A stretch of DNA of 64,000 bases. Origin: Candidatus Limnocylindrales bacterium (GTDB lineage Bacteria > Chloroflexota > Limnocylindria > Limnocylindrales > CSP1-4). The stretch is taken from contig DATFHO010000045.1 of assembly GCA_035248345.1 (NCBI GenBank), forward strand, positions 53,398-117,397, in the 5' to 3' direction. The notes under the pieces are model-generated. The model ran no database searches. It had not been told where the DNA came from and saw nothing but the letters and a program-made list of their open reading frames with translations. The translations under genes and the position numbers were made by a program. Below, in pieces: positions 7,482-55,728 of the stretch; position 1 is the first letter of the stretch; every line of letters starts with the position of its first letter.

Positions 7482-9338
7482 GTGAGGTTCAGCTTCGCCT
7501 TGACCCTCGATGTCCGCCAGGAGTTCCTCGTCCAGCCGGTCGATGCTTCCTGGCTCCAGTGCAACATCGAGTGCCAGGAGGCATGCCCTGTCGGCACGAA
7601 CTGCCGCGGCTACCTGAACCTCGCGGCCGAAGGCCGCTTCGAAGAGGGCTACATCCTCTCCCGCGAGCCAAACCCGGTCGCGGCGATGTGCTCCTACGTC
7701 TGCTCCGCCCCATGCGAGCGCGCCTGCCGGCGCGGTGACATCGATCGCCCGCTCGCCATCCGCGCCATGAAGCGGTTCCTCGTCGAGTGGCACGAGGCGT
7801 CCGGCATCCCCGACGTCATGCCCCACATCGAGGCGCGCGCCGAGAAGGTCGCCGTCGTCGGTGCCGGACCCGCCGGGATCGCCGTCGCCCGTGAGCTCGC
7901 GATGAAGGGCTACGGCGTCGACGTCTACGACAGCCTCCCGTTCGCCGGCGGCACGATGCTCATCGGCGTCCCGGCGTTCCGCCTCCCGCGCGAGGCGATC
8001 GAGATGGACGTCAAGCTCGTCGAACGGCTCGGCGTCACGTTCCACTACAACACCAACATCGGCGTCGACATCGCGTTCGACGATCTTCAGAGCCGCTTCG
8101 ACGCCGTGGCGATCACCGCCGGCGCCATGAACGCGGTTGCGCTCGACGTGCCCGGTGGCGACCTGGAAGGCGTCCAGTACGGCGTCGACTTCATGAAGAA
8201 GGCGAACCTCGGCGAGGAGCTCTACGTCGGCAAGGACGTGGTGGTCATCGGCGGTGGGTACACGGCGATGGACTGTTCCCGCACGTCCCTCCGCCACGGC
8301 GCCGAGAATGTCGCGATCGTGTACCGCCGCACGCGCTCCGAGCTGGTCGTGGACGAGGAAGAGCTCGGCGAGACCGAGCGCGAAGGCGTGCGCATGGAGT
8401 TCCTCGCGAGCCCGGTTGAGGTGCTCGGCGAGGACGGCCACGTGGTCGGCGTGAAGTTCATCCGCAACCGCCTCGGCGAGCCCGATGCGTCCGGCCGCCG
8501 CTCGCCGGTGCCGATCGAGGGCTCCGAGTTCGTGATCAAGGCGGACGTCGTGATCCCGGCCGTGTCCCAGGCCGCGGACCTGACCTTCCTCCCGGTCGAG
8601 GCGGACTTCGAGGTCAACCGCGGCCGCGTGAAGGTCGATCCCGCGACGTACGCGACCAACGTCCGCGGCGTCTTCGCCTGCGGTGACTTCGTGACCGGCC
8701 CGACGACGCTCATCGAGGCTGCCGGCCATGGCAAGAAGTGCGCGTACGCGATCGATCGCTACCTCGCTGGCCGAACGGACGTCACGGTCGCGGCGAACGT
8801 GAAGATGTCCAGCCAGTGGACCTTCGAGATGCCCGAGTTCTACGACGTCCTGCCGCGCCAGCACATCCCGATGACCGCGCTCGCCGAGCGGATGCCGTCC
8901 ACGGATCCGGACGTCAACTTCACGACGCAGGTCGAGCGGGGCTACGACGCGACCGCGGCCGTCGCCGAGTCGACGCGCTGCCTGATGTGCAACTACAACA
9001 TCTGGTTCGACCCGTTCCGGTGCACGCTGTGCGGCGCGTGCGCAGATGTGTGCCCCGAGGGCATCATCCACATGGTCGACATCAACACGCTGAAGTCCGA
9101 GGGCCTCCTGACGGAGCTGGACGAGGCGTACGGCTGGCGCGACGGCGCCGCCATGGTGCTCGACGAGGAGCGGTGCATCCGCTGCGCCCTGTGCGTCAAG
9201 CGTTGCCCGTTCGACGCCATTACGATGGAGCGGTTCGAGCTCCAGGAGATCTCGACCGACGGCCGGCTCTACAAGGAGTCGTACCGGGACGCGCAGCTCG
9301 CCGGGACGCCCGGCGTCGCAGGAGGATCGGTTCGTTGA
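7482..9338 (+). CDS. GltD-like NAD(P)H-dependent FAD/FeS oxidoreductase fused to a C-terminal 2x[4Fe-4S] ferredoxin domain; first gene of the Rieske/cyt b operon
   Basis: 618 aa.
- N-terminal Cys clusters: CNIECQEACPVGTNC...CSYVCSAPCERAC, as in the glutamate synthase small subunit.
- Dinucleotide folds: KVAVVGAGPAGIAVA and KDVVVIGGGYTAMD, plus GVFACGD.
- C-terminal ferredoxin motifs: CTLCGACADVCP and CIRCALCVKRCP (CxxCxxCxxxCP, twice).
- No TM segment.
The stop overlaps the TTG start of cytochrome b (TTGA at 9335-9338). Confidence 0.85.
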   Translation: MRFSFALTLDVRQEFLVQPVDASWLQCNIECQEACPVGTNCRGYLNLAAEGRFEEGYILSREPNPVAAMCSYVCSAPCERACRRGDIDRPLAIRAMKRFLVEWHEASGIPDVMPHIEARAEKVAVVGAGPAGIAVARELAMKGYGVDVYDSLPFAGGTMLIGVPAFRLPREAIEMDVKLVERLGVTFHYNTNIGVDIAFDDLQSRFDAVAITAGAMNAVALDVPGGDLEGVQYGVDFMKKANLGEELYVGKDVVVIGGGYTAMDCSRTSLRHGAENVAIVYRRTRSELVVDEEELGETEREGVRMEFLASPVEVLGEDGHVVGVKFIRNRLGEPDASGRRSPVPIEGSEFVIKADVVIPAVSQAADLTFLPVEADFEVNRGRVKVDPATYATNVRGVFACGDFVTGPTTLIEAAGHGKKCAYAIDRYLAGRTDVTVAANVKMSSQWTFEMPEFYDVLPRQHIPMTALAERMPSTDPDVNFTTQVERGYDATAAVAESTRCLMCNYNIWFDPFRCTLCGACADVCPEGIIHMVDINTLKSEGLLTELDEAYGWRDGAAMVLDEERCIRCALCVKRCPFDAITMERFELQEISTDGRLYKESYRDAQLAGTPGVAGGSVR

Positions 9339-10063
9339 GCTTCCTCGAGCGGGTGGACCAGACCATCCGCCGAAGCCCCGTCTGGCGCTCGCTGTTCCGC
9401 AACCCGTATCCGACGGACGAGCGGTCACGCGCCTACGCGGTCATGAACAATGTGTTCCTCCACCTGCACCCGGTGCGGGTCCGGCAGCACGCGGTGAAGT
9501 TCGCCTACACGTTCTGCCTGGGCGGCCTGTCGTTCTTCCTGTTCCTCGTCCTGACCGTGACGGGCGTCTACCTGATGTTCTTCTACATCCCGTCGACGAC
9601 GCACGCGTACACGGACATCCTGAACATCCAGTCGAGCGTGGCGTTCGGGCAGATCACCCGCAACGTGCACCGGTGGGGCGCCCACCTGATGGTGTTCTTC
9701 GTCTTCCTGCACATGATGCGGGTCTTCTACCACGGGGCCTACAAGCCGCCGCGCGAGTTCAACTGGGTCGTCGGCGTGCTGCTCCTGCTCATGACGATCG
9801 CCCTGAGCTTCACCGGCTACCTGCTCCCGTGGGACCAGATCAGCTACTGGGCCATCACGATCGGCCTGAACATGGCGAGCTACACGCCGGTCATCAACAC
9901 GCCGATCCAGAACTTGATCTTCGGTGGCTTGGAGGTCGGGCAGAACACGCTGCTCCGCTTCTACGTGCTCCACATCATGGTCCTGCCGCTCGTGGCAGCC
10001 ATCCTCCTCGCGGTGCACTTCTGGCGCATCCGCAAGGACGGCGGGATCTCCGGGCCGCTGTGA
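9335..10063 (+). CDS. cytochrome b6-type cytochrome b (N-terminal four-helix half; PetB/QcrB-like)
   Basis: TTG at 9335 with GGAGGA 9 nt upstream. Helix B reads HRWGAHLMVFFVFLH (His 14 residues apart). Helix D reads HIMVLPLVAAILLAVH (His 15 apart, b6-type spacing). Also carries the FCLGG motif and WDQISYWA. Confidence 0.9.
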   Translation: MSFLERVDQTIRRSPVWRSLFRNPYPTDERSRAYAVMNNVFLHLHPVRVRQHAVKFAYTFCLGGLSFFLFLVLTVTGVYLMFFYIPSTTHAYTDILNIQSSVAFGQITRNVHRWGAHLMVFFVFLHMMRVFYHGAYKPPREFNWVVGVLLLLMTIALSFTGYLLPWDQISYWAITIGLNMASYTPVINTPIQNLIFGGLEVGQNTLLRFYVLHIMVLPLVAAILLAVHFWRIRKDGGISGPL

Positions 10064-10066
10064 TCC

Positions 10067-10693
10067 ATGACTGACCAAAAGACCGAGCCGCGCGAGTCAC
10101 GCGGCGCGATCCAGCCGGTCGATCCCGCCCGTCGGACGGAGATCGACAAGCAGCGCGTGCCCATGTCCGCGCGGCCGTACCGGCTGCTCGCGATGGTCAA
10201 GCAGGACGCCGTCGTCCGTGTCCAGAAGGAACCGGACGACACGGTCATGACCTGGCCGCACCTGCTCTCGATCGAGTTCCTCGCGGCGGTCGTCATGAGC
10301 ATCTTCCTGCTGCTCATGGGCCTGTTCATCAACGCGCCGCTCGAGGAGCTGGCGAACGCGAACGTCACCCCGCCGGTCGCGAAGGCGCCGTGGTACCTGC
10401 TCGGGCTGCAGGAGATGCTGGCCTACTTCCACCCGGTCATCTCCGGCGTGCTCGTGCCGTTCCTGTACATCCTCGGCGCCGGCTTCATCCTGCCGTACCT
10501 GGACCGGGCAAACATCGAGGCGAAGAAGCCGTCGGATCGGAAAACCGCCGTCGTGCTGTTCAGCCTGCTGTGCGTGCTCGGCCTCATGGTCACGTTCGTG
10601 GGCGTGTTCTTCCGCGGCCCAGGCTACTCGCTCGTGACGCCGTTCCTGCCCTTCTTCGACAACTTCACCAACGGCCTCCACTTCGCCCTGTAA
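10067..10693 (+). CDS. cytochrome b C-terminal half / subunit IV (PetD-like)
   Basis: 208 aa with three TM helices. The Qo-loop region VTPPVAKAPWYLLGLQEMLAYF aligns with the PEWY(F) segment of PetD. Starts 4 nt after the cyt b stop. Confidence 0.85.
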   Translation: MTDQKTEPRESRGAIQPVDPARRTEIDKQRVPMSARPYRLLAMVKQDAVVRVQKEPDDTVMTWPHLLSIEFLAAVVMSIFLLLMGLFINAPLEELANANVTPPVAKAPWYLLGLQEMLAYFHPVISGVLVPFLYILGAGFILPYLDRANIEAKKPSDRKTAVVLFSLLCVLGLMVTFVGVFFRGPGYSLVTPFLPFFDNFTNGLHFAL

Positions 10694-10706: not shown

Positions 10707-11381
10707 ATGAGCAACTACCACCTCGCGCCCGCCGACAAGCCGAAGGCCCTCACGCCGCAGGCCCTCAGATCGCTCCGCCAGGATCCCGTCCAGGGCATCT
10801 CTCGCCGGACGCTGCTCCGCCGCTCGATCGGTGGTGCCGCGCTGCTCTGGCTCACCGAGGTCGCGGCCGGGTCCATCGGCTTCCTGTGGCCGAACACGAA
10901 GGGCGGCTTCGGCAGCGTCATCAAGATCGGCAAGATCGCGGACATCAAGTCCGCGAACTCGTCCATCCCGTTCGCGAACGGCTTCCCGGTGTATTACCAG
11001 GAGGCCCGCGCCTACATCATGCTGGTCGACACGGCCCGCCAGGAGTTCATCCCCGGCGAGGACAAGACCGGCGACGGCACCGCGCTGAACGTCCGTGCGC
11101 TCTACCAGCGCTGCCCGCACCTCGGCTGCAAGCCGAACCCGTGCCTCAAGAACTACTGGTTCGAGTGCCCGTGCCACGGCTCCCGCTACGACCGGCTCGG
11201 GATCAAGGCCCAGGGCGCGCAGTACGGCCCGGCGCCGCGCGGGATGGACCGCTTCTCGATCACGGTCGACGCTGACGGCAACCTGATCGTCGACACGTCG
11301 AAGATCACCCTCGGTCCCCTGCCGATTCCGGTTGGCCAGCCCGGCATCATCCCGCCGAAGAGCCCGGTCGGCTGCATCTGA
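10707..11381 (+). CDS. Rieske [2Fe-2S] protein with Tat-type signal/anchor
   Basis: 224 aa. Twin-arginine region ISRRTLLRRSIGGAALLWL. Cluster boxes CPHLGC and CPCHGSRY. Confidence 0.9.
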   Translation: MSNYHLAPADKPKALTPQALRSLRQDPVQGISRRTLLRRSIGGAALLWLTEVAAGSIGFLWPNTKGGFGSVIKIGKIADIKSANSSIPFANGFPVYYQEARAYIMLVDTARQEFIPGEDKTGDGTALNVRALYQRCPHLGCKPNPCLKNYWFECPCHGSRYDRLGIKAQGAQYGPAPRGMDRFSITVDADGNLIVDTSKITLGPLPIPVGQPGIIPPKSPVGCI

Positions 11382-12442
11382 TGACCGACGAAACGAACCG
11401 CCCGGAAGGGTCGGATCGAAGCCTTCCCGCACGACGCGACGCGGACGCCGGGGTACCGGCGCGGACCGCGGATCGGTTCACGGCGCCGCGCCAGACCCGC
11501 GCCGTCGGCGGGCTGACCTCGGAGCGCGCCGCGAAGATCGTGCGGCAGTCGGGCGACGCCCGCTGGGTGGCGTTCCTCGGGCTCGTGATCGTCGCCCTGT
11601 TCGTCATCGTCTATTACTTCTACGAGCTCGGAGTGCCGATCATCAACACGACGCCGCGCATGCAGGCCGAGGCGGACCTCCAGCAGGTCACCTCCGTCGA
11701 GCGCGGGTACAACCTCTTCGAGGCGAACTGCGCGAAGTGCCACGGCGCGAACGGCGAAGGTGGCGTCGGGCCGGTGCTGAACGACCAGAACAAGCTCTTC
11801 TCGCACCTGACCGAGGCCTACATCCGGAACGTCCTTGAGGTCGGCGGCCGGTATGTCTGCGGCAATCCGAAGAGCGTGATGCCGGTGTGGTCGAACACGA
11901 ACGGCGGGCCGCTGAACTACGTCCAGATCGAGGATCTCATCGCATTCATCCGCGCCGATTCCACGCAGGAATACGTAAAGCGGAGCGCGACGCTGAATGA
12001 GCCGATCATCGGAGATGACGGCAAGGTCGAGACGTTCAAGGGTTGGCGCGACGTGACCTTCAAGCCGGATCCGAGCGCATCGCCGGTTCCGGACTGCTAC
12101 CTCGGCGACAAGGGCTCGGCCACACCGGCACCGGCCGCCTCCCTCGGGCCGGACGCGCCGACCTTCAACGTCGTCGGCCTGAACATCGCCTTCGACAAGA
12201 AGACACTCGACGTCGCCGCCAACACGCCATTCGCGATCGACTTCGACAACCAGGATCCCGCCGGTGTCCAGCACAACGTGGAGATCCGGGACGACACGGG
12301 CCAGGTCCTGCAGGACCAGCCGCTCATCGATGGCGGGCAGAAGACCACCTACGTCTACAGCGGACTGCCGGCCGGCACCTACACGTTCATCTGCAAGGTG
12401 CACCCGATCCCCAACATGACCGGCACCTTGACGGTGAAATAG
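11381..12442 (+). CDS. membrane-anchored monohaem cytochrome c fused to a C-terminal type-1 copper (cupredoxin) domain
   Basis: 353 aa.
- TM anchor: WVAFLGLVIVALFVIVYYFY.
- Haem motif CAKCH, with a distal SVMPVW methionine.
- Pro/Ala linker.
- Cupredoxin ligand set: VQHNVEI ... FICKVHPIPNMTGTLTVK (His, Cys, His, Met).
The ATG overlaps the Rieske stop by 1 nt. Confidence 0.85.
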   Translation: MTDETNRPEGSDRSLPARRDADAGVPARTADRFTAPRQTRAVGGLTSERAAKIVRQSGDARWVAFLGLVIVALFVIVYYFYELGVPIINTTPRMQAEADLQQVTSVERGYNLFEANCAKCHGANGEGGVGPVLNDQNKLFSHLTEAYIRNVLEVGGRYVCGNPKSVMPVWSNTNGGPLNYVQIEDLIAFIRADSTQEYVKRSATLNEPIIGDDGKVETFKGWRDVTFKPDPSASPVPDCYLGDKGSATPAPAASLGPDAPTFNVVGLNIAFDKKTLDVAANTPFAIDFDNQDPAGVQHNVEIRDDTGQVLQDQPLIDGGQKTTYVYSGLPAGTYTFICKVHPIPNMTGTLTVK

Positions 12443-12444
12443 CG

Positions 12445-13983
12445 ATGGCCCGAGCGCTTTCCGCTGGTTCCGTGCGCCATCGACGGACCATGTTCGGCCT
12501 GGTCGACAGCGACGGTTGGGCATGGGCGTCGATCAAGGCGTTCATCTGGCTGATCGTGATCATCATGGTCCTCGGGTACATCCCGGACCGCGCCTACTAC
12601 TTCGTGGTCTCACGCACGATCGACCTCGGGATCATCGGCTGGTCGCCGGTGAACCTCTGCCCGCCCGAGAACACCGCCGCGATGCCGTGCCCCGTTCCGG
12701 CCGGCGCGATCCTGCCGTGGCAGGCCGCGGGTGACGCGGCCGCGCTGCCGGCCGCTCGCTACGGCGGCAACGCGATCCAGCTCGGCTCGAACCTGCTGTA
12801 CGCAGGCGGGTCGGACGCGAGCGGGGCCACCTCGACGACGTACGCAACGAAGCTCGACAAGGGCAACTTCGGACCCTGGACCGAGGGCCCGGCACTGCCC
12901 GAGGCGCGCACCGGCGCAGCCGTCACGACGCTCAGCGGCACCGCCTACATGGTGGGCGGCATCGGCCCGGACGGGAAGCCGACGAAGACCGTGTGGACGC
13001 TCGGACTCGACCCCGATACGAACGCGCTCAAGACGTGGTCGACCGTCTGCACCGTCGCGCTCAAGACGGGCGAGACCTGCGCCAACGACAAGCTCCTGAC
13101 GCTGCCGGACGCGCGGACCGGTTCCTCGATCGTCGCGGTCTCGGACGGCTTGCTCGTGATCGGCGGGCGCGGTGCCGACAACAAGCCGACCTCCACGGTC
13201 TGGAAGTCCACGCTCAACGACAAGGGCGTCCTCGGCGCGTTCGCCGAGCAGCCGGGCCTGCCGCATGCGATCACCGACGCCGCGGCCGGGCTGGAGGGCA
13301 CGTTCGTCTTCGTCTATGGCGGCACCGGCGACAGCGGCCCGGTCGGCGGGGTCATGCGCTCTGCCTACGGGAACGTCACGCCGGCCCTCGCAAGCGGCGC
13401 CCCGACCCCGGATCCGAGCGCGGCACCGGCCCAGGGGATCGTCGGCTGGGCGACGCTCGACGCGGCGAACATGCCCGTCGCTCGAACGGGTGGCGCGGGC
13501 TTCTCGGCCAACGGCGCCATGTACTACGCCGGCGGTTCCGACGGCACGAAGACCTACGGTGACGTCTACTGGGCGCTGCCGGACGCCGCAGGCAACCTCC
13601 CCGGTGGCTGGCACCACCTCGACGCGACGGACCTGCCTGGTGGCCTCGTGAACGCCGCGCCGATCGTGGCCGGGACGAACGTGATCCTCATCGGCGGCCA
13701 GGCGGACGGCGGGGCGCTCACCTCGTCGACGCACGCCTCGCTCGCACCGCAGGAGCCCTTCTTCCGGCTGGGCCTGGTCGGCGCCACGGTTCCGGGCCTC
13801 CAGATCTCGGGTGAGATCGGGCAGCAGCTCGGCTACCTCGCGGCTGCGGGTGTCGGCACCGGCAACTTCGTGATCCTCGTGATCGTCGCGTGGGCGTTCA
13901 ACCACCGACCGCAGATCATGGAGTGGCGCGAGCGCCGCAAGCGCGAGAAGGACGCCAAGGTCCCCTCCGAACCCGAAGCGTAA
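12445..13983 (+). CDS. Kelch-repeat beta-propeller protein bracketed by N- and C-terminal TM helices; last gene of the Rieske/cyt b operon
   Basis: Internal ATG at 12445 of ORF 12043..13983, 2 nt after the previous stop. N-terminal TM is IKAFIWLIVIIMVLGYI. Repeats of the type LYAGGSD.., AYMVGGIGPDGKPT.TVW, LLVIGGRGADNKPTSTVW, FVFVYGG and MYYAGGSDG (Kelch GG..W pattern). C-terminal TM is GNFVILVIVAWAF followed by a Lys/Arg/Glu tail. Confidence 0.75.
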   Translation: MARALSAGSVRHRRTMFGLVDSDGWAWASIKAFIWLIVIIMVLGYIPDRAYYFVVSRTIDLGIIGWSPVNLCPPENTAAMPCPVPAGAILPWQAAGDAAALPAARYGGNAIQLGSNLLYAGGSDASGATSTTYATKLDKGNFGPWTEGPALPEARTGAAVTTLSGTAYMVGGIGPDGKPTKTVWTLGLDPDTNALKTWSTVCTVALKTGETCANDKLLTLPDARTGSSIVAVSDGLLVIGGRGADNKPTSTVWKSTLNDKGVLGAFAEQPGLPHAITDAAAGLEGTFVFVYGGTGDSGPVGGVMRSAYGNVTPALASGAPTPDPSAAPAQGIVGWATLDAANMPVARTGGAGFSANGAMYYAGGSDGTKTYGDVYWALPDAAGNLPGGWHHLDATDLPGGLVNAAPIVAGTNVILIGGQADGGALTSSTHASLAPQEPFFRLGLVGATVPGLQISGEIGQQLGYLAAAGVGTGNFVILVIVAWAFNHRPQIMEWRERRKREKDAKVPSEPEA

Positions 13984-48203: not shown

Positions 48204-49147
48204 GGCACGGCCTCGATGTCGCGATCGCCGGTGATCTCGAGGTAGCGATCCTCGAGGGATGCCGCGCCGGCTCGCAGCTCCACGACGAGCAGGCCTTCTT
48301 TCGCCGCCCAGCTCGTGATCTCGGAGGCGACGTCCGCCGAGGCAGCTCCCGGCTCGATCTCGAAGGCAACGTCGGAGCCCCGGACGGCACGGAGGCGTGA
48401 TTCGCCGTGGAGCGCGGCGATCCGCCGGGCGAGCTGCTGGATGGCCTCGGGCGGGGGCGTCGCATGGAGGCGGAACTTGACGGCGGCGGAGCCGCCCTGG
48501 CTGATCGCGTCGACCGTGTCGTCAATCACGATCCGGCCACGATGGAGGATTGCGACGCGGGTCGCGAGCGCCTCGGCGTCGCCGAGATCGTGCGTCGTCA
48601 TGAGGATCGTGCGGCCCGCGTCGCGCAGTCCTGCGACGAGCGAGCGAGTCTCGCGCCGCGCCGCGGGATCCATGCCCGCGGTGGGCTCGTCGAGGATCAG
48701 CACCTCGGGCTCGCCCGCCAGCGCGATCGCGAGCGCGAGCCGCTGGCGCTCCCCACCGGACAGGCGGCGCACGCGGGTGCCCGCCACCATTGCCAGGCCC
48801 ACCTGGTCGATCAGCTCGTCCGGTAGCGGCCCGCCGCGATGGAAGGCGGCGTACATCCGCACGAGGTCCCGTGGCGTCGCGCGCGGCTCGAGCCCGGCGC
48901 CGCCCTGCAGCATCAGCCCGACCTTCGCCTTGTGCGCCGGCCCGCCGCGGCGCGGGTCCGTCCCGAGCACGCGCACCGTCCCCGCGTCCGGCGTTCGATA
49001 GCCCTCGATCGTCTCGACCGTGGTCGTCTTGCCGGCACCGTTCGGCCCGAGCAAGGCGACCAGCTCACCGGGTCGGACGACGAGGTCGACGCCGTCGAGC
49101 ACGGCCCGATCGCCGTAGGCCATTCGGAGGCCCGAAACCTCGATCAC
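48200..49147 (-). CDS. ABC transporter ATP-binding protein (ABC-2/DrrA/NosF-like subfamily)
   Basis: 315 aa. GTG at 49147 overlaps the TlpA-like stop (GTGA). Contains GPNGAGKTT, LSGGERQRLALAIAL and LILDEPTAGMD. Confidence 0.9.
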   Translation of the reverse strand: MIEVSGLRMAYGDRAVLDGVDLVVRPGELVALLGPNGAGKTTTVETIEGYRTPDAGTVRVLGTDPRRGGPAHKAKVGLMLQGGAGLEPRATPRDLVRMYAAFHRGGPLPDELIDQVGLAMVAGTRVRRLSGGERQRLALAIALAGEPEVLILDEPTAGMDPAARRETRSLVAGLRDAGRTILMTTHDLGDAEALATRVAILHRGRIVIDDTVDAISQGGSAAVKFRLHATPPPEAIQQLARRIAALHGESRLRAVRGSDVAFEIEPGAASADVASEITSWAAKEGLLVVELRAGAASLEDRYLEITGDRDIEAVP

Positions 49148-49668
49148 GGCATCGCCGCTTCCGACGGCGTCGCGATGGGACCGGGAGCGTTGCCGCTGAT
49201 CAGCGCGTACTGCCGCTCGAACTCGTCGTCGGTCAGCTCGCCGACCTGGATCGAGCGGAGGATCCCGTCACGGTCGATGAAGTAGGTCTGTGGCCGCGCC
49301 GCGACGCGATAGGCGGTGCGGATCTGTTTGTCCGGATCGTTCACGGTGGGCCAGGTCGCCGCGTACTGGGCAATGAAGTCCTGCGCGGGCGTGACCGGGT
49401 CGTCCATCAGGACCCCGACGATCGCGATGCCGTTGCTCCCGGCGCTGTATCTGGCGAGCTTGTCCTTGAGCAGCGGAAACTCGTCGCGGCAGGGGACGCA
49501 GCTCGGTCCCCAGAAGTTGACGACGACCGGCCGACCGCGAAGGGCGGCGAGGTCGAACGCCTGACCGTCGAGCGTCGAACCGACGATCCGTGGCGCCGGC
49601 GCGCCCTTGGCGATGAACGGGGCATCGTCGGTGGGGGTCGTGGTCGCGGTCGAGGTGCCCGTCCCCAT
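49144..49668 (-). CDS. TlpA/ResA-like thiol:disulfide oxidoreductase (thioredoxin fold)
   Basis: 174 aa from ATG 49668. Active site VVNFWGPSCVPCRDEFP, plus P.TYFIDRDG. An in-frame TM-like segment lies upstream of the ATG with no canonical start codon (see findings). Confidence 0.8.
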   Translation of the reverse strand: MGTGTSTATTTPTDDAPFIAKGAPAPRIVGSTLDGQAFDLAALRGRPVVVNFWGPSCVPCRDEFPLLKDKLARYSAGSNGIAIVGVLMDDPVTPAQDFIAQYAATWPTVNDPDKQIRTAYRVAARPQTYFIDRDGILRSIQVGELTDDEFERQYALISGNAPGPIATPSEAAMP

Positions 49669-49774: not shown

Positions 49775-50905
49775 CTACTTGACCGTCAGCGTCCCGGTCA
49801 TCGCCGGGATCGGGTGGATGGAGCAGATGTAGGTGTAGGTGCCCGGCTGCAGCGCGTCGTACGTGTACGCCTGCGACTTGCCGCCATCCGTCGGTGCCTG
49901 CTTCTTGAGCACGGAGCCATCGCTCGACCGGAGCTCGACGTCGTGCGGCGTCCCCGGAGCGTCCTCGTTCACGAACCAGATCGTGAAGGGCTTTCCGGCC
50001 GCCGTCTCGAGCGTTTTCTCCTTGTACTCGAGCACCTTTGCCTCGACCGTGAGCGCTCCCGGAGGGGCGCCGGCGGCGCCACCCGGAGCGCCGGAACCCG
50101 CGGGCGCGCCCGAAGCGCCGGGAGTGCCGGTGCCGCCACCTGAGGCCACGGACGCGAAGAAGCCGGCCTGGGTGAGCCCGAGGAGGACGAAGGCCAGCGC
50201 GAAGACCTGCAGCGTCCGCAGCGGGAGCGGGATCGCCGGGATGTTCTCGAGGTGGCCGGTCTTGTCGGCCTCGACCGTCTTGCGGTACTCGGCCGTGGCA
50301 TCGAACAGCCAGCCCAGGAGCGTGTAGACGAGGAAGATCACCGCGAGGATCAGGACCCAGCCGCCGACCACGAGGCCGCCGAGGAGCGCCGCGGACCCGA
50401 GCGCGCCCATGAGCGGACGGATCGACGGGCCCGGCATGTGGACGCCGGGTGGCGGACCCTCGTGGATGACCGCCGGCAGCATCGTCCGGTTCTCGAGTTG
50501 GTCGTAGTCGCGGAGCGCGTCGCGCATCCAGACGGTGAGCGTCAGGGCCATGATCACCGCGCCGATCGCGAGCCAGACGCCGCCGAGCACGAGCCCCAGG
50601 AAGAGCATTGCCCCACCGAAGGCGACGACGATCGGTGCCGCGGAGCCGCCCGGCATGTGCACCGAGGCGGGAGTGATCGGCTGGATGCGGGCGGGAGCAC
50701 GTCGGCTCGGACCGAGCGTCGCGAACTTGCGGAACGTGAATGCGAACCAGGCGATGAACAGGAGCGCCAGCAGGAACGGGAGGAGCGCGATCAGCGCTTT
50801 CCAGTCCGGCATGACGAAGATCGACAGGGTGTCGAGGACCGTCGTGACGAGGTCCTTCGCGGACGCTGCCGCCGATGCTGCTGCGGAAGGCGCTGCCGAC
50901 TCCAC
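49775..50905 (-). CDS. polytopic membrane protein with duplicated HMPGxS two-helix module and C-terminal type-1 copper (cupredoxin) domain
   Basis: 376 aa with about six TM helices.
- Internal repeat: VHMPGGSAAPIVVAFGGAMLFLGLVLGGVWLAIGAVIMALTLTVWMRDALRDY versus VHMPGPSIRPLMGALGSAALLGGLVVGGWVLILAVIFLVYTLLGWLFDATAEY.
- Gly/Ala/Pro linker.
- Cupredoxin ligand set: TPHDVEL ... YICSIHPIPAMTGTLTVK. Confidence 0.8.
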   Translation of the reverse strand: MESAAPSAAASAAASAKDLVTTVLDTLSIFVMPDWKALIALLPFLLALLFIAWFAFTFRKFATLGPSRRAPARIQPITPASVHMPGGSAAPIVVAFGGAMLFLGLVLGGVWLAIGAVIMALTLTVWMRDALRDYDQLENRTMLPAVIHEGPPPGVHMPGPSIRPLMGALGSAALLGGLVVGGWVLILAVIFLVYTLLGWLFDATAEYRKTVEADKTGHLENIPAIPLPLRTLQVFALAFVLLGLTQAGFFASVASGGGTGTPGASGAPAGSGAPGGAAGAPPGALTVEAKVLEYKEKTLETAAGKPFTIWFVNEDAPGTPHDVELRSSDGSVLKKQAPTDGGKSQAYTYDALQPGTYTYICSIHPIPAMTGTLTVK

Positions 50906-50917
50906 GAGAGGCCGGCG

Positions 50918-51103
50918 CTAGTCGCCGAGGCCGGCTTCGAGGACCGCGACGAGGAGTCCCATGGCTGCGCCGAGCGCGATCAGCATCGTGACCCCGGCCC
51001 ACTCGATGTGATAGCCGAGGACCGGCGCGAGCCCACCGTAGACGGCGGCCAGCACGACGCAGCTGATTGCGATGATGACCGCGTTGCGGTGACGTCGAAG
51101 CAT
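50918..51103 (-). CDS. small two-helix membrane protein (candidate oxidase subunit IV-like component)
   Basis: Internal ATG at 51103 of ORF 50918..51481, 15 nt after the ctaE stop. Product: MLRRHRNAVIIAISCVVLAAVYGGLAPVLGYHIEWAGVTMLIALGAAMGLLVAVLEAGLGD. The longer ORF version overlaps ctaE out of frame and is rejected. Confidence 0.5.
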   Translation of the reverse strand: MLRRHRNAVIIAISCVVLAAVYGGLAPVLGYHIEWAGVTMLIALGAAMGLLVAVLEAGLGD

Positions 51104-51117
51104 GTCGTCGATCCTCG

Positions 51118-51750
51118 CTACGGGATCAGGTACAGGATCGAGAAGAGCAGGATCCAGACCACGTCGACGAAGTGCCAGTACAGCGACACCGCCTCGACGG
51201 CGTCGTGGTGCTTCGACGAGAACTGGCCGGCCATGCCGCGGTAGAGGACCACGCCGAGCATCAGCACGCCACCGAACACGTGGGCGCCGTGGAAGCCCGT
51301 GAGCGTGAAGTACGTCGTCCCGAACGCGCCCGACCCGAGCGTCATGCCTTCGCCGAACAGCAGGCTGTAGTCGTAGACCTGCATGATCAGGAAGATGATG
51401 CCGAGCACGAACGTGATCGAAATGTTCCGGATGTAGCCCTTCCGGTCGCCCTTGCGGATCGACCAGACGGCGAACTGGCACGTGAACGAGCTCGTGATCA
51501 GCAGGATGGTGGCCAGCATGATCGGCCCGAGCGGGTCGAGGATGTGCTTGAACGCTGCGGGTGGCCAGGGCTGGTTCGCGGCGCGGGTCGCGAAGTACGC
51601 GGCGAACAGGCCGGAGAAGAACATCACCTCGGAGGTGATGAACAGGATCATCCCGAGGATCGGGTTGCTGATCCCTCGCGAGTGCCCGGCCGCGACCGGA
51701 TGCGCCTCGGCGTGTCCGGCGGCGGTCATGGCGTGTGCTTCAGCGGTCAC
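51118..51750 (-). CDS. ctaE: cytochrome c oxidase subunit III
   Basis: 210 aa with five TM helices. Contains FFSGLFAAYF, FTLTGFHGAHVFGG and the C-terminal EAVSLYWHFVDVVWILLF. Confidence 0.9.
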   Translation of the reverse strand: MTAEAHAMTAAGHAEAHPVAAGHSRGISNPILGMILFITSEVMFFSGLFAAYFATRAANQPWPPAAFKHILDPLGPIMLATILLITSSFTCQFAVWSIRKGDRKGYIRNISITFVLGIIFLIMQVYDYSLLFGEGMTLGSGAFGTTYFTLTGFHGAHVFGGVLMLGVVLYRGMAGQFSSKHHDAVEAVSLYWHFVDVVWILLFSILYLIP

Positions 51751-53456
51751 GAGGCGGAGCCTCCGGCGGGGATCGCCTTCGGCGCGTCGTCGTGGCCGGG
51801 GTCGTCATGGCCGCCGTTGCCGTGGCCGCCCGAGAGGAGGCCGTGGCGCTGGTCGAACAGCGGTCGCTCGGAGCGGATGTCCGGCAGGCGGTCGAAGTTG
51901 TAGGGCGGGGGCGGCGAGGACGTCGCCCACTCGAGCGTGTTGCCCTCCCACGGGTCGTCGCCGGCGATCTTGCCGCCGCGCAGCGACACGAGGACGTTCC
52001 AGATGAACGGCAGCATCGAGATGCCGATGATGAAGCCGCCGATGGTGGCGACGAGGTTCCAGTCGTTCCAGCCGGCGTCGCCCGCGTAGTCCGCGATGCG
52101 CCGCGGCATCCCCGCGAGGCCGAGCATGTGCATCGGGAAGAACGTCAGGTTGAACCCGACGAACATCAGCACGAAGTGGACCTTGCCGAGGGTCTCGTCC
52201 AGCATCCGGCCGGTCATCTTCGGGAACCAGTAGTAGATCCCCGCGAACACGCCGAACGCCGAGCCACCGAAGAGCACGTAGTGCAGGTGCGCGACGACCC
52301 AGTAGGTGTCGTGCAGGGCGAAGTCGACGGGCACGGCGGCGCTGAAGGCACCGTTGATGCCGCCGATCAGGAACATCGTCAGGAAGCCGATGGCGAAGAT
52401 CAGCGGCGTCGAGAACGTCAGCTGGCCCCGGAACATCGTGAAGATCCAGTTGAACATCTTCACGCCGGTCGGGACCGCGATCATGAATGTCATCAGCGCA
52501 AAGAACGGCAGGAACACGGCGCCGGTCGTGAACATGTGGTGCGCCCAGACCGAGAAGCCCAGGGCCCCGATGCCCGCCGTGGCGAAGATGAACGCCTTGT
52601 AGCCGAACAGCGGCTTGCGGCTGAAGACCGGCAGGACCTCGCTGATCACGCCCATCGCGGGCAGGACCATGACGTACACCGCGGGGTGCGAGTAGAACCA
52701 GAACACGTTCTGGTAGAGCACCGGGATGCCGCCCGTCTGGAAGTTGAAGAACGATCCGCCGTAGTTGCGGTCGATGAAGAGCATGACCAGGGCGCTGGTG
52801 ATGACCGGCGTGGCCATGACCACGAGGACGCTCGTCACGAGGACGGTCCAGACCATGATCGGCATGCGGAACAGCGTCATGCCCGGGGCGCGCATCTTGA
52901 AGATGGTGACGAGGAAGTTGATGCCGCCGAGGATGGAGCTCGTCCCGATCAGGACGAGCGACACGATCCACAGGTCCTGGCCGGGGCCTGGGGAGGCGAG
53001 CGCGCCGCGCTCCGTGAGCGGCGGGTAGCTCGTCCAGCCGGCGGCAGCAGCGCCGCCCGGCGTCAGGAAGCCCGCGAGGAGGAGGATGCCGCCGAGCGGC
53101 AGCATCCAGAAGCTCAGCGCGTTGATGCGCGGGAACGCCATGTCCGGCGCGCCGATCTGGAGCGGGACGATGTAGTTCCCGAGCCCGGCGAGCATCGGGA
53201 TGATGAACAGGAAGATCATCACCGTCGCGTGGATCGAGAACGACTCGTTGTAGACGTGCTCGTTCGTGAAGATCTGGATTCCGGGCTGCGCGAGCTCCGT
53301 CCGGACCAGCAGGGCGAAGATGCCGCCGATCAGGAAGAACACGAACGAGTTGATGACGTACATGATCCCGATCTTCTTGTGATCGGTGGTCGTCAGCCAC
53401 TCGTAGATGCCGCCTCGGTAGGCCGTGACGGCGGGGCTCAGCGCGTGGGTCGCCAT
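51747..53456 (-). CDS. ctaD: cytochrome c oxidase subunit I (haem-copper oxidase, A-type)
   Basis: 569 aa. Contains TTDHKKIGIMY, FWFYSHPAVYVMVLP, WAHHMFTTG, HDTYWVVAHLHYVLFGG and FPMHMLGLAGMPRR. Confidence 0.95.
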   Translation of the reverse strand: MATHALSPAVTAYRGGIYEWLTTTDHKKIGIMYVINSFVFFLIGGIFALLVRTELAQPGIQIFTNEHVYNESFSIHATVMIFLFIIPMLAGLGNYIVPLQIGAPDMAFPRINALSFWMLPLGGILLLAGFLTPGGAAAAGWTSYPPLTERGALASPGPGQDLWIVSLVLIGTSSILGGINFLVTIFKMRAPGMTLFRMPIMVWTVLVTSVLVVMATPVITSALVMLFIDRNYGGSFFNFQTGGIPVLYQNVFWFYSHPAVYVMVLPAMGVISEVLPVFSRKPLFGYKAFIFATAGIGALGFSVWAHHMFTTGAVFLPFFALMTFMIAVPTGVKMFNWIFTMFRGQLTFSTPLIFAIGFLTMFLIGGINGAFSAAVPVDFALHDTYWVVAHLHYVLFGGSAFGVFAGIYYWFPKMTGRMLDETLGKVHFVLMFVGFNLTFFPMHMLGLAGMPRRIADYAGDAGWNDWNLVATIGGFIIGISMLPFIWNVLVSLRGGKIAGDDPWEGNTLEWATSSPPPPYNFDRLPDIRSERPLFDQRHGLLSGGHGNGGHDDPGHDDAPKAIPAGGSAS

Positions 53457-53469
53457 GCTCGCTGGCTCC

Positions 53470-54567
53470 TTACTGGACCGTGAGAGTGCCGGTCATGTTG
53501 CTGTGGATCGAGCAGAAGAACGTGTACGTCCCGGCCGCGAGCGGCTGGTACGTGTAGTCCTTCTTCGTGCCGCCGGAGATCGTGTCCTGGTTCTCCACGA
53601 CCGTTCCGGAGCTGTCCTTGACGTCGATGTCGTGCGTGATGCTCGACGGATCCGAGTTGGTGAACTCGATGACGAACGGCGCGTTCGCCGGGGCCGTGAG
53701 CGTCTTCGTCAGGAAGTCGATGTTCTTCGCCTCTTCCTTGAGGACCGGCGCGCCCGACGGCGCCGGCGGCGGCGTCGCGTTCTCGACGGCGACGAGGTTC
53801 TGGAGCCACGCGTCGTAGTCCGCCTGGCTCATCGCGGTGACGCTGAAGAGCATCACGCGGTGGCCCGTGCCGCACAGCTCGGCGCACTGGCCGTGGAACG
53901 TCTGGCCGACCTCGTCCTCGTTCACCGTGAACTCGAACTTGTTGATCTGGCCGGGAATGACGTCGCGCTTGAAGAGGAAGCGCGGCACGTACCAGGCGTG
54001 GATGACGTCGCCGCTGGTGAGCGTGACCTGCACCTTCTTTCCGACAGGGACGGCCATGCCGCCGCCCTCGCCGATCGGCTTCGTCTGGGTGGCGACGTGC
54101 TTGCCCTGGGCGTCGAGGTACTCGAACTGCCACTGGAACTGGCCGGCGATCACGTGGATGCGGACGTCCGGGTTATCGGTCGTCGCATCGACCACGTTCA
54201 GCGTGTTCCACGAAAGCCCGAACAGCACCAGGACGATCGCGGTCGGGATGAGCGTCCACAGGACCTCGACGAAGTTGTTGCCGTGGGTCTGGGGCGGCAG
54301 CTCCGTGTCTTCCGGCCGTCGCCGGTAGCGAAGGATGCTCCAGATGATCAGGCCTTCGACCGCGAGGAAGACCGCGACGGCGATCGCGAACACGATGTCG
54401 TACAGCTCGCTCGTCCTGACCGCCTGCGCGGTCGCCGGGGCCGGCGGATAGAGCGATCGACCGGCGCCGCTCAGGAAGACGACCGCGACGATGGCGACCA
54501 GGAGGGCGACGGCACCGCCCGCGACGATTGCGCTGGAGGCGGGGCGCTTCCTCGGGCTGCTCGACAT
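53470..54567 (-). CDS. ctaC: cytochrome c oxidase subunit II with an additional C-terminal type-1 copper (cupredoxin) domain
   Basis: 365 aa.
- Two TM helices.
- CuA site: DVIHAWYVP ... GQCAELCGTGHRVM.
- Pro-rich linker.
- Second cupredoxin: ITHDIDV ... FFCSIHSNMTGTLTVQ (His, Cys, His, Met). Confidence 0.9.
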   Translation of the reverse strand: MSSSPRKRPASSAIVAGGAVALLVAIVAVVFLSGAGRSLYPPAPATAQAVRTSELYDIVFAIAVAVFLAVEGLIIWSILRYRRRPEDTELPPQTHGNNFVEVLWTLIPTAIVLVLFGLSWNTLNVVDATTDNPDVRIHVIAGQFQWQFEYLDAQGKHVATQTKPIGEGGGMAVPVGKKVQVTLTSGDVIHAWYVPRFLFKRDVIPGQINKFEFTVNEDEVGQTFHGQCAELCGTGHRVMLFSVTAMSQADYDAWLQNLVAVENATPPPAPSGAPVLKEEAKNIDFLTKTLTAPANAPFVIEFTNSDPSSITHDIDVKDSSGTVVENQDTISGGTKKDYTYQPLAAGTYTFFCSIHSNMTGTLTVQ

Positions 54568-54711: not shown

Positions 54712-55728
54712 GTGACCTCTCGCCGATCGCTCGCCGCCACGCTCGCGTCGGCGGTGCTGGCGATCGCGGCCGCCGTCACCCTCCCGGCCGTTGCGCTCGC
54801 GCATGGCGCGGTCCCGCCCGACCCCCCGACGTTCCTCAACATCCTCTTCGACTGGAACTTCGAGCCGCTCGTCGCGGGCGGGCTGCTCGTGTCCGCGCTC
54901 GCGTGGCTCTGGATCGTCCGGCGCGTCGGACGGCTGCATCCGGGCCATGGCGTGCCGATCGGCCGGTCGGCGGCGTTCTTCGGCGGGCTGTTCGCGATCG
55001 CCGTTGCGCTGATGTCCGGCATCGAGCGCTACGACACGACGTTGTTCTCGCTGCACATGGTCCAGCACCTGCTGCTGATGCTGGTTGCTGCACCGCTGCT
55101 CGTGCTGGCGGCGCCCGTCACGCAGCTGCTGCGCGCCTCATCCGCCGAGGTGCGGCAGCGGCGGCTCATTCCCGTCCTGCACTCCGGCGTCGTCGCCGCG
55201 CTCGGGCACCCGGTCGTGACGTGGCTCACCTTCAGCCTGGTCCTGTGGCTGTCGCACTTCTCGCCGTTCTTCAACGATGCGCTCGAGGATCGCGGCGTCC
55301 ACGACGCCGAGCACGCGATCTACCTGGTCGCGTCGCTGCTCTTCTGGTGGCCGGCGATCGCCATGGATCCGGCCCGCCGGCGCATGCCGCACGCGGTCCG
55401 CGTGCTGTACGTGCTGCTGCAGCTGCCGGTGAACTCCTTCGTCGGCATGGCGATCACGTTCGCCGACTCGCCGCTCTACCCGCACTACGCGACGCTGAAC
55501 GCGCCGTACGGGATCTCGGCGCTCGCCGACCAACAGATCGCGGGCGGGACGATGTGGCTCGCCGGCGACATCGTGTTCATCGGGGCGATCCTGCTGATCG
55601 TCGGCGCGTGGATGCGCCACGAGGAGCGCGATGCGCCGGCGGCGGAACGGCGAGCCGATGCGCAGCGGGCCGCCCTGGCCGAGCGCGCCGACCAGCTCGC
55701 CCGCGCCCGCGCCGAGGGCCGCCGCTAG
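54712..55728 (+). CDS. ctaG: cytochrome c oxidase assembly factor CtaG (Bacillus caa3-CtaG type membrane protein)
   Basis: GTG at 54712 within ORF 53425..55728. Signal-like N-terminus, then seven or more TM helices with HMVQHLLLM, HPVVTW and GGTMWLAGD. Divergent from ctaC. Confidence 0.75.
   Translation: MTSRRSLAATLASAVLAIAAAVTLPAVALAHGAVPPDPPTFLNILFDWNFEPLVAGGLLVSALAWLWIVRRVGRLHPGHGVPIGRSAAFFGGLFAIAVALMSGIERYDTTLFSLHMVQHLLLMLVAAPLLVLAAPVTQLLRASSAEVRQRRLIPVLHSGVVAALGHPVVTWLTFSLVLWLSHFSPFFNDALEDRGVHDAEHAIYLVASLLFWWPAIAMDPARRRMPHAVRVLYVLLQLPVNSFVGMAITFADSPLYPHYATLNAPYGISALADQQIAGGTMWLAGDIVFIGAILLIVGAWMRHEERDAPAAERRADAQRAALAERADQLARARAEGRR

Follow-up and report, generated by a model that had tools for sequence, protein, structure and literature searches.

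A cytochrome c-cupredoxin fusion protein encoded in a b6f-like Rieske/cytochrome b operon of Candidatus Limnocylindrales

In known quinol-oxidizing complexes the electrons leave on a separate carrier, except in Actinobacteria, where a second fused haem receives them, and in the caa3 oxidases of Thermus and Bacillus a cytochrome c is fused behind the CuA domain of subunit II. By analogy with these systems, the known principle of a built-in electron carrier (the second haem of QcrC, the cytochrome c of caa3) is seen in a new form in a protein encoded in the DNA analysed here, a stretch of 64,000 nt from Candidatus Limnocylindrales (assembly GCA_035248345.1, contig DATFHO010000045.1), which is referred to below as the window and whose own numbering is used for all positions. 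The protein joins a class-I cytochrome c domain to a type-1 copper (cupredoxin) domain in a single membrane-anchored chain, and its gene follows the Rieske gene of a Rieske/cytochrome b operon. This fusion design is real and is conserved across the Limnocylindria lineage. With a probability of roughly 0.6, we take the fusion protein to serve a b6f-like Rieske/cytochrome b complex as its high-potential subunit on the extracytoplasmic side, equipped with an electron shuttle of its own.

Several described systems come close to this arrangement. Halocyanin is encoded in the haloarchaeal Rieske/cytochrome b cluster, together with a cytochrome b that is split and a Rieske protein of high potential (PMC3509893), plastocyanin-like proteins are found beside Rieske proteins and without cytochrome c in Nitrososphaerales and Ca. 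Angelarchaeales (PMC9038741), and sulfocyanin SoxE is part of the SoxM supercomplex of Sulfolobus (SoxM is listed in PMC4122944). The auracyanin of Roseiflexus has been described as the periplasmic acceptor in a cyclic chain with alternative complex III (PMC10873879), and there are copper nitrite reductases to which a cytochrome c or a cupredoxin domain is tethered (PMC7201279; PMC13324648). The anammox Rieske/cytochrome b complexes Kuste4569-4574 and Kustd1480-1485 include an NAD(P) oxidoreductase in the gene cluster and hexa- and octahaem subunits; they have been proposed to make NAD(P)H by quinol bifurcation, and their Rieske potentials are +303 and +335 mV (PMC12954380). An earlier note on this locus, made from the sequence without database searches, had stated that the c-type subunits of known complexes are mono- or dihaem only, which is too narrow in view of the anammox subunits (PMC12954380). 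It had also described cupredoxins as separate carriers. They are indeed separate proteins, to which it should be added that in Archaea they are encoded beside Rieske/cytochrome b genes (PMC3509893; PMC9038741).

The gene for the fusion protein has a third-position G+C content of 0.90, in a window of 69% G+C. The anatomy of the protein was derived from the translated open reading frame, Pfam, an AlphaFold2 model with its predicted local distance difference test score (pLDDT), Foldseek and conservation, and is as follows.

11381-12442, + strand: the fusion protein, 353 residues.
11381-11563, + strand: N-terminus, residues 1-61, Arg-rich, net charge +3, probably cytoplasmic.
Residues 62-83: transmembrane helix (hydrophobicity; helix 47-83 in the AlphaFold2 model, pLDDT about 83).
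Residues about 100-195: class-I cytochrome c domain, with a conserved extension, residues 196-227, behind it.
11729-11743, + strand: haem c attachment motif C117-A-K-C120-H121 (CAKCH), from sequence motif and conservation.
11876-11890, + strand: VMPVW, residues 166-170, containing the distal Met167 (sixth ligand).
12062-12154, + strand: flexible linker, residues about 228-258, KPDPSASPVPDCYLGDKGSATPAPAASLGPDAP (low pLDDT, low conservation).
12155-12442, + strand: type-1 copper cupredoxin domain, residues about 259-353 (pLDDT, Foldseek, ligand alignment).
12272-12274, + strand: copper ligand His298, in QHNV (residues 297-300).
12392-12418, + strand: copper ligands Cys338-x2-His341-x4-Met346, in CKVHPIPNM (residues 338-346).

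The transmembrane anchor, CAKCH motif, distal Met, linker and cupredoxin ligands that the earlier note had read from this open reading frame were thus all recovered by translation, Pfam and motif check, and so was the single haem site, as CAKCH was the only CxxCH motif in the fusion and in all predicted genes of the window.

Residues 106-191 were recognized by the Pfam models of class-I c-type cytochromes, both Cytochrom_C PF00034 (38.0 bits; cut-off 21.3) and PF13442 (32.6 bits; cut-off 27). In the AlphaFold2 model, which was built on an alignment of 65 sequences and had a mean pLDDT of 64.6, the haem domain consisted of helices with a pLDDT of just 37-67, and the covalent haem is a prediction from sequence. 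The chains in the PDB nearest to the haem domain were those of QcrC from bcc-aa3 supercomplexes, and the CcoP-cytochrome cy fusion 6xkx was among the matches. Membership of the established families was rejected for QcrC, plastocyanin, cytochrome c6, cytochromes c550/c551, CcoP and SoxX, with NCBIfam scores far under the cut-offs: the QcrC model NF050122 reached 30.5 bits against a cut-off of 200 and aligned with residues 75-128 only of a protein with a single CxxCH, plastocyanin TIGR02656 reached 16.8 (cut-off 87.85) and cytochrome c6 NF045930 reached 18.0 (cut-off 135). Homologues appear in public databases only under the automatic names 'c-type cytochrome', 'cupredoxin domain-containing protein' and 'mono/diheme cytochrome c family protein/plastocyanin'.

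The copper domain was recognized by Cupredoxin_1 PF13473 (residues 258-352; 40.7 bits, cut-off 27) and by Copper-bind PF00127 (residues 269-353; 25.1 bits, cut-off 21.2), and residues 261-353 were modelled as an eight-stranded sandwich with a pLDDT of 89-97. The top Foldseek matches in the PDB were auracyanins (6kol, 8.9e-8; 1qhq, 2.0e-7; 2aan, 3.9e-7), with which the domain shared 22-26% identity, followed by amicyanin, plastocyanin, CuA domains and Cupredoxin_1 proteins; the Foldseek probability was 1.00 for auracyanins, amicyanin, plastocyanin and CuA domains, and target-normalized TM-scores were 0.6-0.8. HMMER alignment to PDB sequences placed the GVQHN of the fusion on the identical GVQHN of auracyanin B, including His57, and His298, Cys338, His341 and Met346 on His57, Cys122, His127 and Met132 of that protein, whilst the C-terminal GTYTFICKVHPIPNMTGTLTVK was paired with GTYTFYCTPHKSANMKGTLTVK, the ligand loop of fern plastocyanin. 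The aligned auracyanin B and plastocyanin residues are the known copper ligands of the crystal structures, with which the chain numbering agrees. The cupredoxin described in the earlier note was recovered by profile, fold and ligand alignment, and the domain is, to judge from these comparisons, a bona fide cupredoxin nearest to the auracyanins and not a stand-alone carrier. The prediction that haem c and type-1 copper are combined in this protein is close to certain.

The length of the copper ligand loop differed among the orthologues of the fusion (loci L001-L069), with the spacings C-x2-H-x4-M, C-x2-H-x3-M and C-x2-H-x2-M. In other cupredoxins such spacings separate plastocyanin-type from amicyanin-type loops and tune the site.

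The linker between the two domains had the lowest values of the whole protein both for pLDDT (31-35) and for mean column conservation (0.45), and across 56 homologues it ranged from 29 to 84 residues and consisted of 69% Ala, Pro, Ser and Gly. It is on account of this low pLDDT, low conservation, variable length and composition that the segment is read as a tether. Two further cysteines were conserved: Cys160 (11858-11860), in the haem domain, was present in 95% or more of 56 sequences and invariant in 65, and Cys239 (12095-12097), at the start of the linker, was kept in at least 95% of the 56 and at least 90% of the 65. A disulfide between them could pin the tether. At the other end of the protein, the net charge of +3 places the first 61 residues probably on the cytoplasmic side, and L15, P16, R32, F33, L45, R49, V54, Q56, R61 and W62 were invariant or almost so. 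This conservation is well above the needs of a plain anchor, which suggests that the segment may contact the cytoplasmic flavoprotein or the cytochrome b6 encoded in the same operon.

A protein search gave 2432 hits at E ≤ 0.001, of which the best 120 clusters were listed (66-100% identity, 97-100% coverage), and both the cytochrome c and the cupredoxin Pfam domains were present in 120 of these 120. A scan of loci, with one genome per species, yielded 70 loci with a full-length two-domain fusion at 39-86% identity; the closest relative (86%) came from a Ca. Limnocylindrales metagenome-assembled genome (MAG), and nearly all loci were labelled Ca. Limnocylindria, Ca. Limnocylindrales, Chloroflexota or uncultured Chloroflexia. 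The Rieske gene was directly upstream of the fusion gene in 70 of 70 Limnocylindria loci. The ligands were kept almost throughout. Amongst 56 full-length sequences, the haem ligands C117, C120 and H121 were present in 55 and M167 in all 56, and the copper ligands H298 and M346 were present in 54 and C338 and H341 in 55; in the 65 closer homologues all ligands were invariant except Met346 (at least 90%).

These comparative data also refute the suggestion that mis-assembly, a frameshift or an error of sequencing had merged a cytochrome c gene and a cupredoxin gene. The general error rate of MAGs and the split tblastn matches in the long-read loci L059 and L063-L069 are what could be said for such an artefact. 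The same unbroken frame of about 350 residues was nevertheless found in 55 independent genomes, the two-domain structure in every one of the 120 listed clusters, and neither a stop codon nor an alternative start lies between the domains, which leaves this explanation with practically no probability.

In a search of 1.84 billion representatives only 91 clusters, many of them fragments, were found at E ≤ 1e-30, and a haem c-cupredoxin fusion outside the Limnocylindria lineage was not demonstrated in that search. Apparent hosts outside the lineage, namely Binatia (L009), Dormibacteraeota (P0027) and Patescibacteria (P0388, a match to oxidase subunit II), had 62-72% identity and are most simply explained by binning or naming noise. 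Other architectures, suggested by the longer matches P0138, P0141, P0143, P0157 and P0176, were likewise rejected, as no coherent extra Pfam domain was present and the sequences are probably read-through or frameshift products. From these searches, the fusion family is compact and demonstrable in the Limnocylindria lineage alone. Proteins in which a cupredoxin repeat occurs once or several times, with 31-42% identity to the copper domain, were seen in MAGs related to methanogens (Methanotrichaceae, Methanosarcinales and Methanoregula), at the following positions of their loci.

L077, 2922-3794: methanogen-related cupredoxin protein.
L078, 4513-9662: methanogen-related cupredoxin protein.
L079, 8001-8354: methanogen-related cupredoxin protein.

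The fusion gene is the fifth of a six-gene operon, in which neighbouring genes overlap or lie at most 13 nt apart. The other five genes and their motifs are listed below.

7482-9338, + strand: NAD(P)-binding protein with flavin adenine dinucleotide (FAD) and iron-sulfur (FeS) clusters, 618 residues, operon gene 1 (Pfam, NCBIfam).
9335-10063, + strand: cytochrome b6 of the four-helix type (Pfam, NCBIfam, motifs).
9461-9469, + strand: N-terminal FLH(L/I)HPVRV motif of b6 with His43 and His45, invariant and just ahead of YTFCLGG.
9512-9526, + strand: haem ci Cys motif YTFCLGG of b6.
10067-10693, + strand: subunit IV, the C-terminal part of cytochrome b (Pfam Cytochrom_B_C; ExtQ-like in NCBIfam).
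10385-10396, + strand: Qo motif A107-P-W-Y110 of subunit IV (APWY in 64 of 70 loci).
10707-11381, + strand: Rieske [2Fe-2S] subunit (Pfam, NCBIfam, motifs).
11166-11189, + strand: Rieske box II, CPCHGSRY (in 66 of 70 loci).
12445-13983, + strand: Kelch-repeat beta-propeller, 512 residues, operon gene 6 (Pfam Kelch families; a transmembrane helix at each end).

The stop codon of the Rieske gene overlaps the ATG of the fusion gene (TGATG), and the ATG of the Kelch gene begins 2 nt past the fusion stop codon. The Kelch gene stood behind the fusion gene in every locus with enough contig, and the remaining gene order was kept wherever the contigs reached among the 70 loci; the Kelch protein could be a scaffold or an extra subunit. 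A scan of the operon for sigma-70-like sites found none, and terminator-like matches were at background level only. From this setting it is highly probable that the fusion protein is a subunit of the Rieske/cytochrome b complex.

The earlier note had spoken of a bc-type complex. The Rieske/cytochrome b operon is there, but the complex it encodes is not a canonical bc1: by its sequence motifs it is b6f-like, on the grounds of a split cytochrome b, the haem ci Cys, the APWY Qo motif and CPCHGSRY, and its first gene encodes an NAD(P)-binding FAD/FeS protein. Cys61 of b6 (FCLGG) corresponds to the haem ci-binding Cys of b6f-type enzymes, and YTFCLGG was found in 63 loci; a split cytochrome b and a haem ci Cys are b6f-like traits of the 'green' clade (PMC3509893). 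Subunit IV has the APWY Qo motif by which Kao and Hunte defined a clade in 2014, an assignment made by motif alone; in that clade, which includes Chloroflexi, APWY replaces PEWY/PDWY, no member has been characterized, and reverse operation has been suggested (PMC4122944). The Rieske protein has a twin-arginine signal/anchor (RRTLL, residues 33-37), box I CPHLGC and box II CPCHGSRY. Gly and Phe at the Ser and Tyr positions of box II are a low-potential signature (PMC3509893), whereas the box II serine has been tied to potentials above +200 mV (PMC12954380), and the Rieske protein here bears the signature of the high-potential type, with both Ser and Tyr in box II.

The first two genes of the operon may bear on a different function. 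The flavoprotein is GltD/NfnB-like, with Fer4_20 and Pyr_redox_2 domains, a C-terminal 2x[4Fe-4S] ferredoxin domain and no signal peptide; it is always the first gene in loci with enough flank, and its identity of 83-95% across the lineage is the highest in the operon (flavoprotein and b6 81-96%, compared with 39-86% for the fusion). The TGA of its gene is overlapped by the TTG start of b6, which has an AGGAGG ahead of it. Cytochrome b6 scored 163 bits with Pfam Cytochrome_B and 299.9 bits with NCBIfam ExtP, above the cut-off of 290. ExtP is a Geobacter-type b cytochrome. In the invariant FLH(L/I)HP of b6, His43 has the same number as His43 of Kuste4571, which has been proposed as ligand to an additional haem b between the monomers that leads to the NAD(P) reductase (PMC12954380).

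The complex might accordingly serve to generate NAD(P)H, as has been proposed for the anammox complexes, but aerobically, and the fusion protein would then be the exergonic exit and not part of a proton-pumping Q cycle. Quinol would be bifurcated at the APWY Qo site; one electron would be driven uphill via the b haems, four FeS clusters and FAD to NAD(P)+, whilst the other would run downhill from the Rieske protein, by way of haem c, the tethered copper and the oxidase, to oxygen and so pay for the uphill branch. The flavoprotein with its Fer4_20 and 2x[4Fe-4S] domains, its place at the head of the operon in overlap with b6, its outstanding conservation, the split b6/subunit IV pair with its haem ci Cys, the ExtP score and the two invariant histidines would all suit such a scheme, into which the Ser and Tyr of box II and the anammox Rieske proteins at +303 and +335 mV also fit (PMC12954380). 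Against this, the anammox mechanism is itself a proposal backed by models (PMC12954380), the agreement in the numbering of His43 may be coincidence and the likeness to Kuste4571 is by description only, such a generator would be of little use to an aerobe that has a normal complex I, and the flow could equally go from NAD(P)H to the quinone or the oxidase. We regard this alternative as rather unlikely, with something like one chance in four; it overlaps with our preferred assignment, the fusion as high-potential subunit with its own shuttle, on the role of the fusion itself.

For the acceptor of that shuttle, the window offers an aa3-type oxidase operon on the minus strand (49775-54567), the genes of which are listed here with their immediate neighbours.

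53470-54567, - strand: oxidase subunit II (CoxB), with two transmembrane helices, a CuA domain and a C-terminal cupredoxin.
51747-53456, - strand: oxidase subunit I (CoxA; Pfam COX1, 540 bits).
51118-51750, - strand: oxidase subunit III (CoxC; Pfam COX3, 139 bits).
49775-50905, - strand: CtaF-like membrane protein, 376 residues, with two segments of the CtaF-type (PF12270, actinobacterial) subunit IV and a C-terminal cupredoxin.
49144-49668, - strand: TlpA/ResA-like thioredoxin-fold protein, directly downstream of the oxidase operon.
54760-55728, + strand: Caa3_CtaG assembly factor, divergent, upstream of CoxB.

Two subunits of this oxidase, with CoxA and CoxC between them (51118-53456), are tagged with copper domains paralogous to that of the fusion, as the earlier note had seen. 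The fusion copper domain shared 47% identity with the C-terminus of CoxB (E 1e-31) and 52% with that of the CtaF-like protein (E 9e-33), with the four ligands aligned in each case. The ligands of CoxB are a His followed by C352-S-I-H-S-N-M, and those of the CtaF-like protein, the last gene of the oxidase operon, include C361-S-I-H-P-I-P-A-M; CoxB has no cytochrome c domain. The tagged oxidase is also conserved, since COX2 and Cupredoxin_1 were both present in 120 of the 120 listed clusters of CoxB homologues, the gene order recurred in L070-L075, and the CtaF-like gene kept its position behind CoxA and CoxC in L070, L072, L074 and L075. At least five other MAGs (DAINSJ, JBBRNM, JBBQTO, DASXQE and DATEZX) contained both a fusion locus and an oxidase locus.

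Copper domains of the window and of loci L008, L011-L013, L061 and L070-L075 were compared by class (cytochrome-linked, CoxB-linked and CtaF-like-linked). Among close relatives the three classes were nearly monophyletic, with 3 class changes on a neighbour-joining tree and a minimum of 2, whereas between distant MAGs the identities across classes (65-76%) exceeded those within a class. The cytochrome-linked domain of the window was 65-68% identical to the CoxB-linked domains of other MAGs but only 48% identical to that of the window itself, and in MAG JBBRNM the cytochrome-linked and CoxB-linked domains were 72% identical. The pattern hints at domain exchange or gene conversion among the classes.

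The TlpA/ResA-like protein and Caa3_CtaG are probably helpers in the assembly of copper or haem centres, and their presence on either side of the oxidase operon would also suit a cupredoxin that acts as a chaperone, store or sensor for CuA/CuB assembly or copper homeostasis. The cupredoxin domains of FtrB and EfeO are Cupredoxin_1-family domains with copper-handling behaviour. FtrB (8vuk), EfeO (7wgu) and a Cupredoxin_1 protein of Bacillus anthracis were among the Foldseek matches of the fusion, and its best Pfam match was Cupredoxin_1 and not Copper-bind. Nonetheless the full His/Cys/His/Met set is in place at canonical positions and spacing with a His-Asn motif, the ligands align with those of auracyanin and plastocyanin and are kept in 54-55 of 56 sequences, and fusion to a haem c and to a CuA subunit fits electron transfer and not metal delivery, so that a role in copper handling is very improbable.

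The oxidase also bears on the direction of flow. Kao and Hunte propose that complexes with the APWY motif, which is conserved here, run in reverse, and cite the p-cresol cluster of Geobacter metallireducens (PMC4122944). Copper and haem might then be an entry port for electrons from an extracytoplasmic high-potential donor, which would be driven backward to the quinone pool or NAD(P)+ at the expense of the membrane potential, and a copper domain that swings outward would suit varied donors. Yet no donor enzyme was found in or next to the operon in the 70 loci, in which the Kelch protein is the sole conserved neighbour, the paralogous copper domains on an oxygen-reducing oxidase point to downhill flow, and an aerobic life, facultative at the least, with cytochrome c oxidases has been described for genomes of the Limnocylindria type (bioRxiv 10.1101/2021.08.23.457424). 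Reverse operation is therefore doubtful, at perhaps one chance in ten.

In the preferred assignment, in which the fusion protein is the high-potential subunit of the complex, the N-terminal helix would hold the protein in the membrane alongside the Rieske protein, b6 and subunit IV. From the mobile Rieske [2Fe-2S] head an electron would pass to haem c, whose domain would have the role of cytochrome c1, of cytochrome f or of QcrC's proximal haem. The electron would then move within the same polypeptide to the type-1 copper. The Ala/Pro/Ser/Gly tether of 29-84 residues would let the copper domain swing out toward the aa3 oxidase, to which the electron would be handed over probably via the homologous copper domain beside CuA. 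The complete path would run quinol -> Rieske -> haem c -> Cu -> Cu -> CuA -> haem a -> haem a3/CuB -> O2 and would dispense with any diffusible carrier. A carrier-free path would suit this cell, which is thought to be monoderm (bioRxiv 10.1101/2021.08.23.457424). In support of the oxidase as acceptor, CoxB has its copper domain where a cytochrome c might stand and no second CxxCH protein is encoded in the 64 kb; we give the route to the copper-tagged aa3 oxidase slightly better than even odds. The proposal of the earlier note that the usually diffusible copper carrier has been welded onto the complex thus stands on its domains, fold, conservation and coupling to the Rieske gene, and is still the best reading, although we infer the welding itself.

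Several points weigh against this assignment. The docking of the haem domain on the Rieske protein is assumed by analogy only, given the pLDDT of 37-67 and the weak similarity to QcrC (30.5 bits against 200), and the occupancy of the two sites by haem and copper is deduced from conserved ligands. The complex belongs by its Qo motif to the APWY group and has an NAD(P) oxidoreductase subunit, as do the anammox complexes, whose function is unsettled (PMC12954380). The oxidase operon is 37 kb away from that of the fusion, and what links the complex to the oxidase is paralogy and co-occurrence only.

A more speculative possibility, which we think has only about one chance in five, is that the two operons encode a copper-wired respiratory supercomplex of a hitherto undescribed type, in which the electrons of quinol would be split aerobically in an anammox-like manner. 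NAD(P)H would be made uphill via b haems, FeS clusters and FAD, and beyond the Rieske protein and haem c three tethered, paralogous blue-copper domains, those of the fusion, of CoxB and of the CtaF-like protein, would relay electrons to oxygen. If this were true, donors at the quinone level would reach NAD(P)H without reverse complex I, and the anammox proposal would become testable in an oxygen-respiring lineage.

No description of a cytochrome c-cupredoxin subunit of a Rieske/cytochrome b complex, or of cupredoxin-tagged oxidase subunits II and IV, was found in open-access papers and bioRxiv. The fusion would be the first case found in which haem c and blue copper are combined in one Rieske/cytochrome b subunit, matched by two copper-tagged oxidase subunits, and it suggests a carrier-free copper link between complexes III and IV in an uncultured monoderm lineage with a wide distribution in soil and fresh water. 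For a class of complex (NAD(P) oxidoreductase subunit, APWY motif) on whose function no measurement has been made, it would also mean an oxygen-linked exit. As a soluble two-cofactor module that could be expressed, the fusion would lend itself to studies of intramolecular haem-to-copper transfer.

Of the known systems, QcrC of the bcc-aa3 supercomplexes (6adq, 6hwh, 7e1v, 7q21 and 8ovc) is similar in being an anchored c-type subunit with two redox domains per chain, one facing the Rieske protein and the other feeding CuA, so that no soluble carrier is needed, and the oxidase in the window has a subunit IV of the actinobacterial type (CtaF, PF12270). The anchor of QcrC is C-terminal. The fusion differs in its N-terminal anchor, its one CxxCH and its second domain, which is type-1 copper and not haem c, and the actinobacterial system has a long QcrB in place of the split, b6-like cytochrome b with APWY found here. 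In the caa3 oxidases, too, subunit II carries the fused donor at its C-terminus, beside CuA, and a Caa3_CtaG gene adjoins the oxidase operon here, but the domain fused to CoxB is a type-1 copper cupredoxin and not a cytochrome c.

Auracyanins A and B of Chloroflexus (2aan and 1qhq/1ov8) and the Roseiflexus auracyanin (6kol), from the same phylum, were the best matches in both sequence and structure and have the same ligands; like the copper domain of the fusion they are tethered to the membrane, and they are blue-copper carriers of the respiratory and photosynthetic chain. They differ in being stand-alone proteins of about 140 residues, with alternative complex III as partner instead of a Rieske/cytochrome b complex. 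The archaeal clusters resemble the present locus in that the quinol-oxidizing complex has a type-1 copper protein as acceptor, either encoded alongside it or part of its assembly; their copper proteins are separate polypeptides and cytochrome c is absent, whereas here haem c and copper are in one bacterial chain. The anammox complexes, compared by description, share the split b6/subunit IV, a high-potential-type Rieske protein, an FAD/FeS NAD(P) oxidoreductase and an unusual positive-side subunit in place of cytochrome f (PMC12954380; PMC4122944), but they use multihaem cytochromes and no oxygen, in contrast with one haem, one copper and an aa3 oxidase here. Finally, the copper nitrite reductases and the membrane-anchored cytochrome cy (CcoP-cytochrome cy, 6xkx) also carry a redox partner on a flexible linker, though in another catalytic context, and in none of them do one type-1 copper domain and a class-I haem c together make up a subunit of a Rieske/cytochrome b complex.

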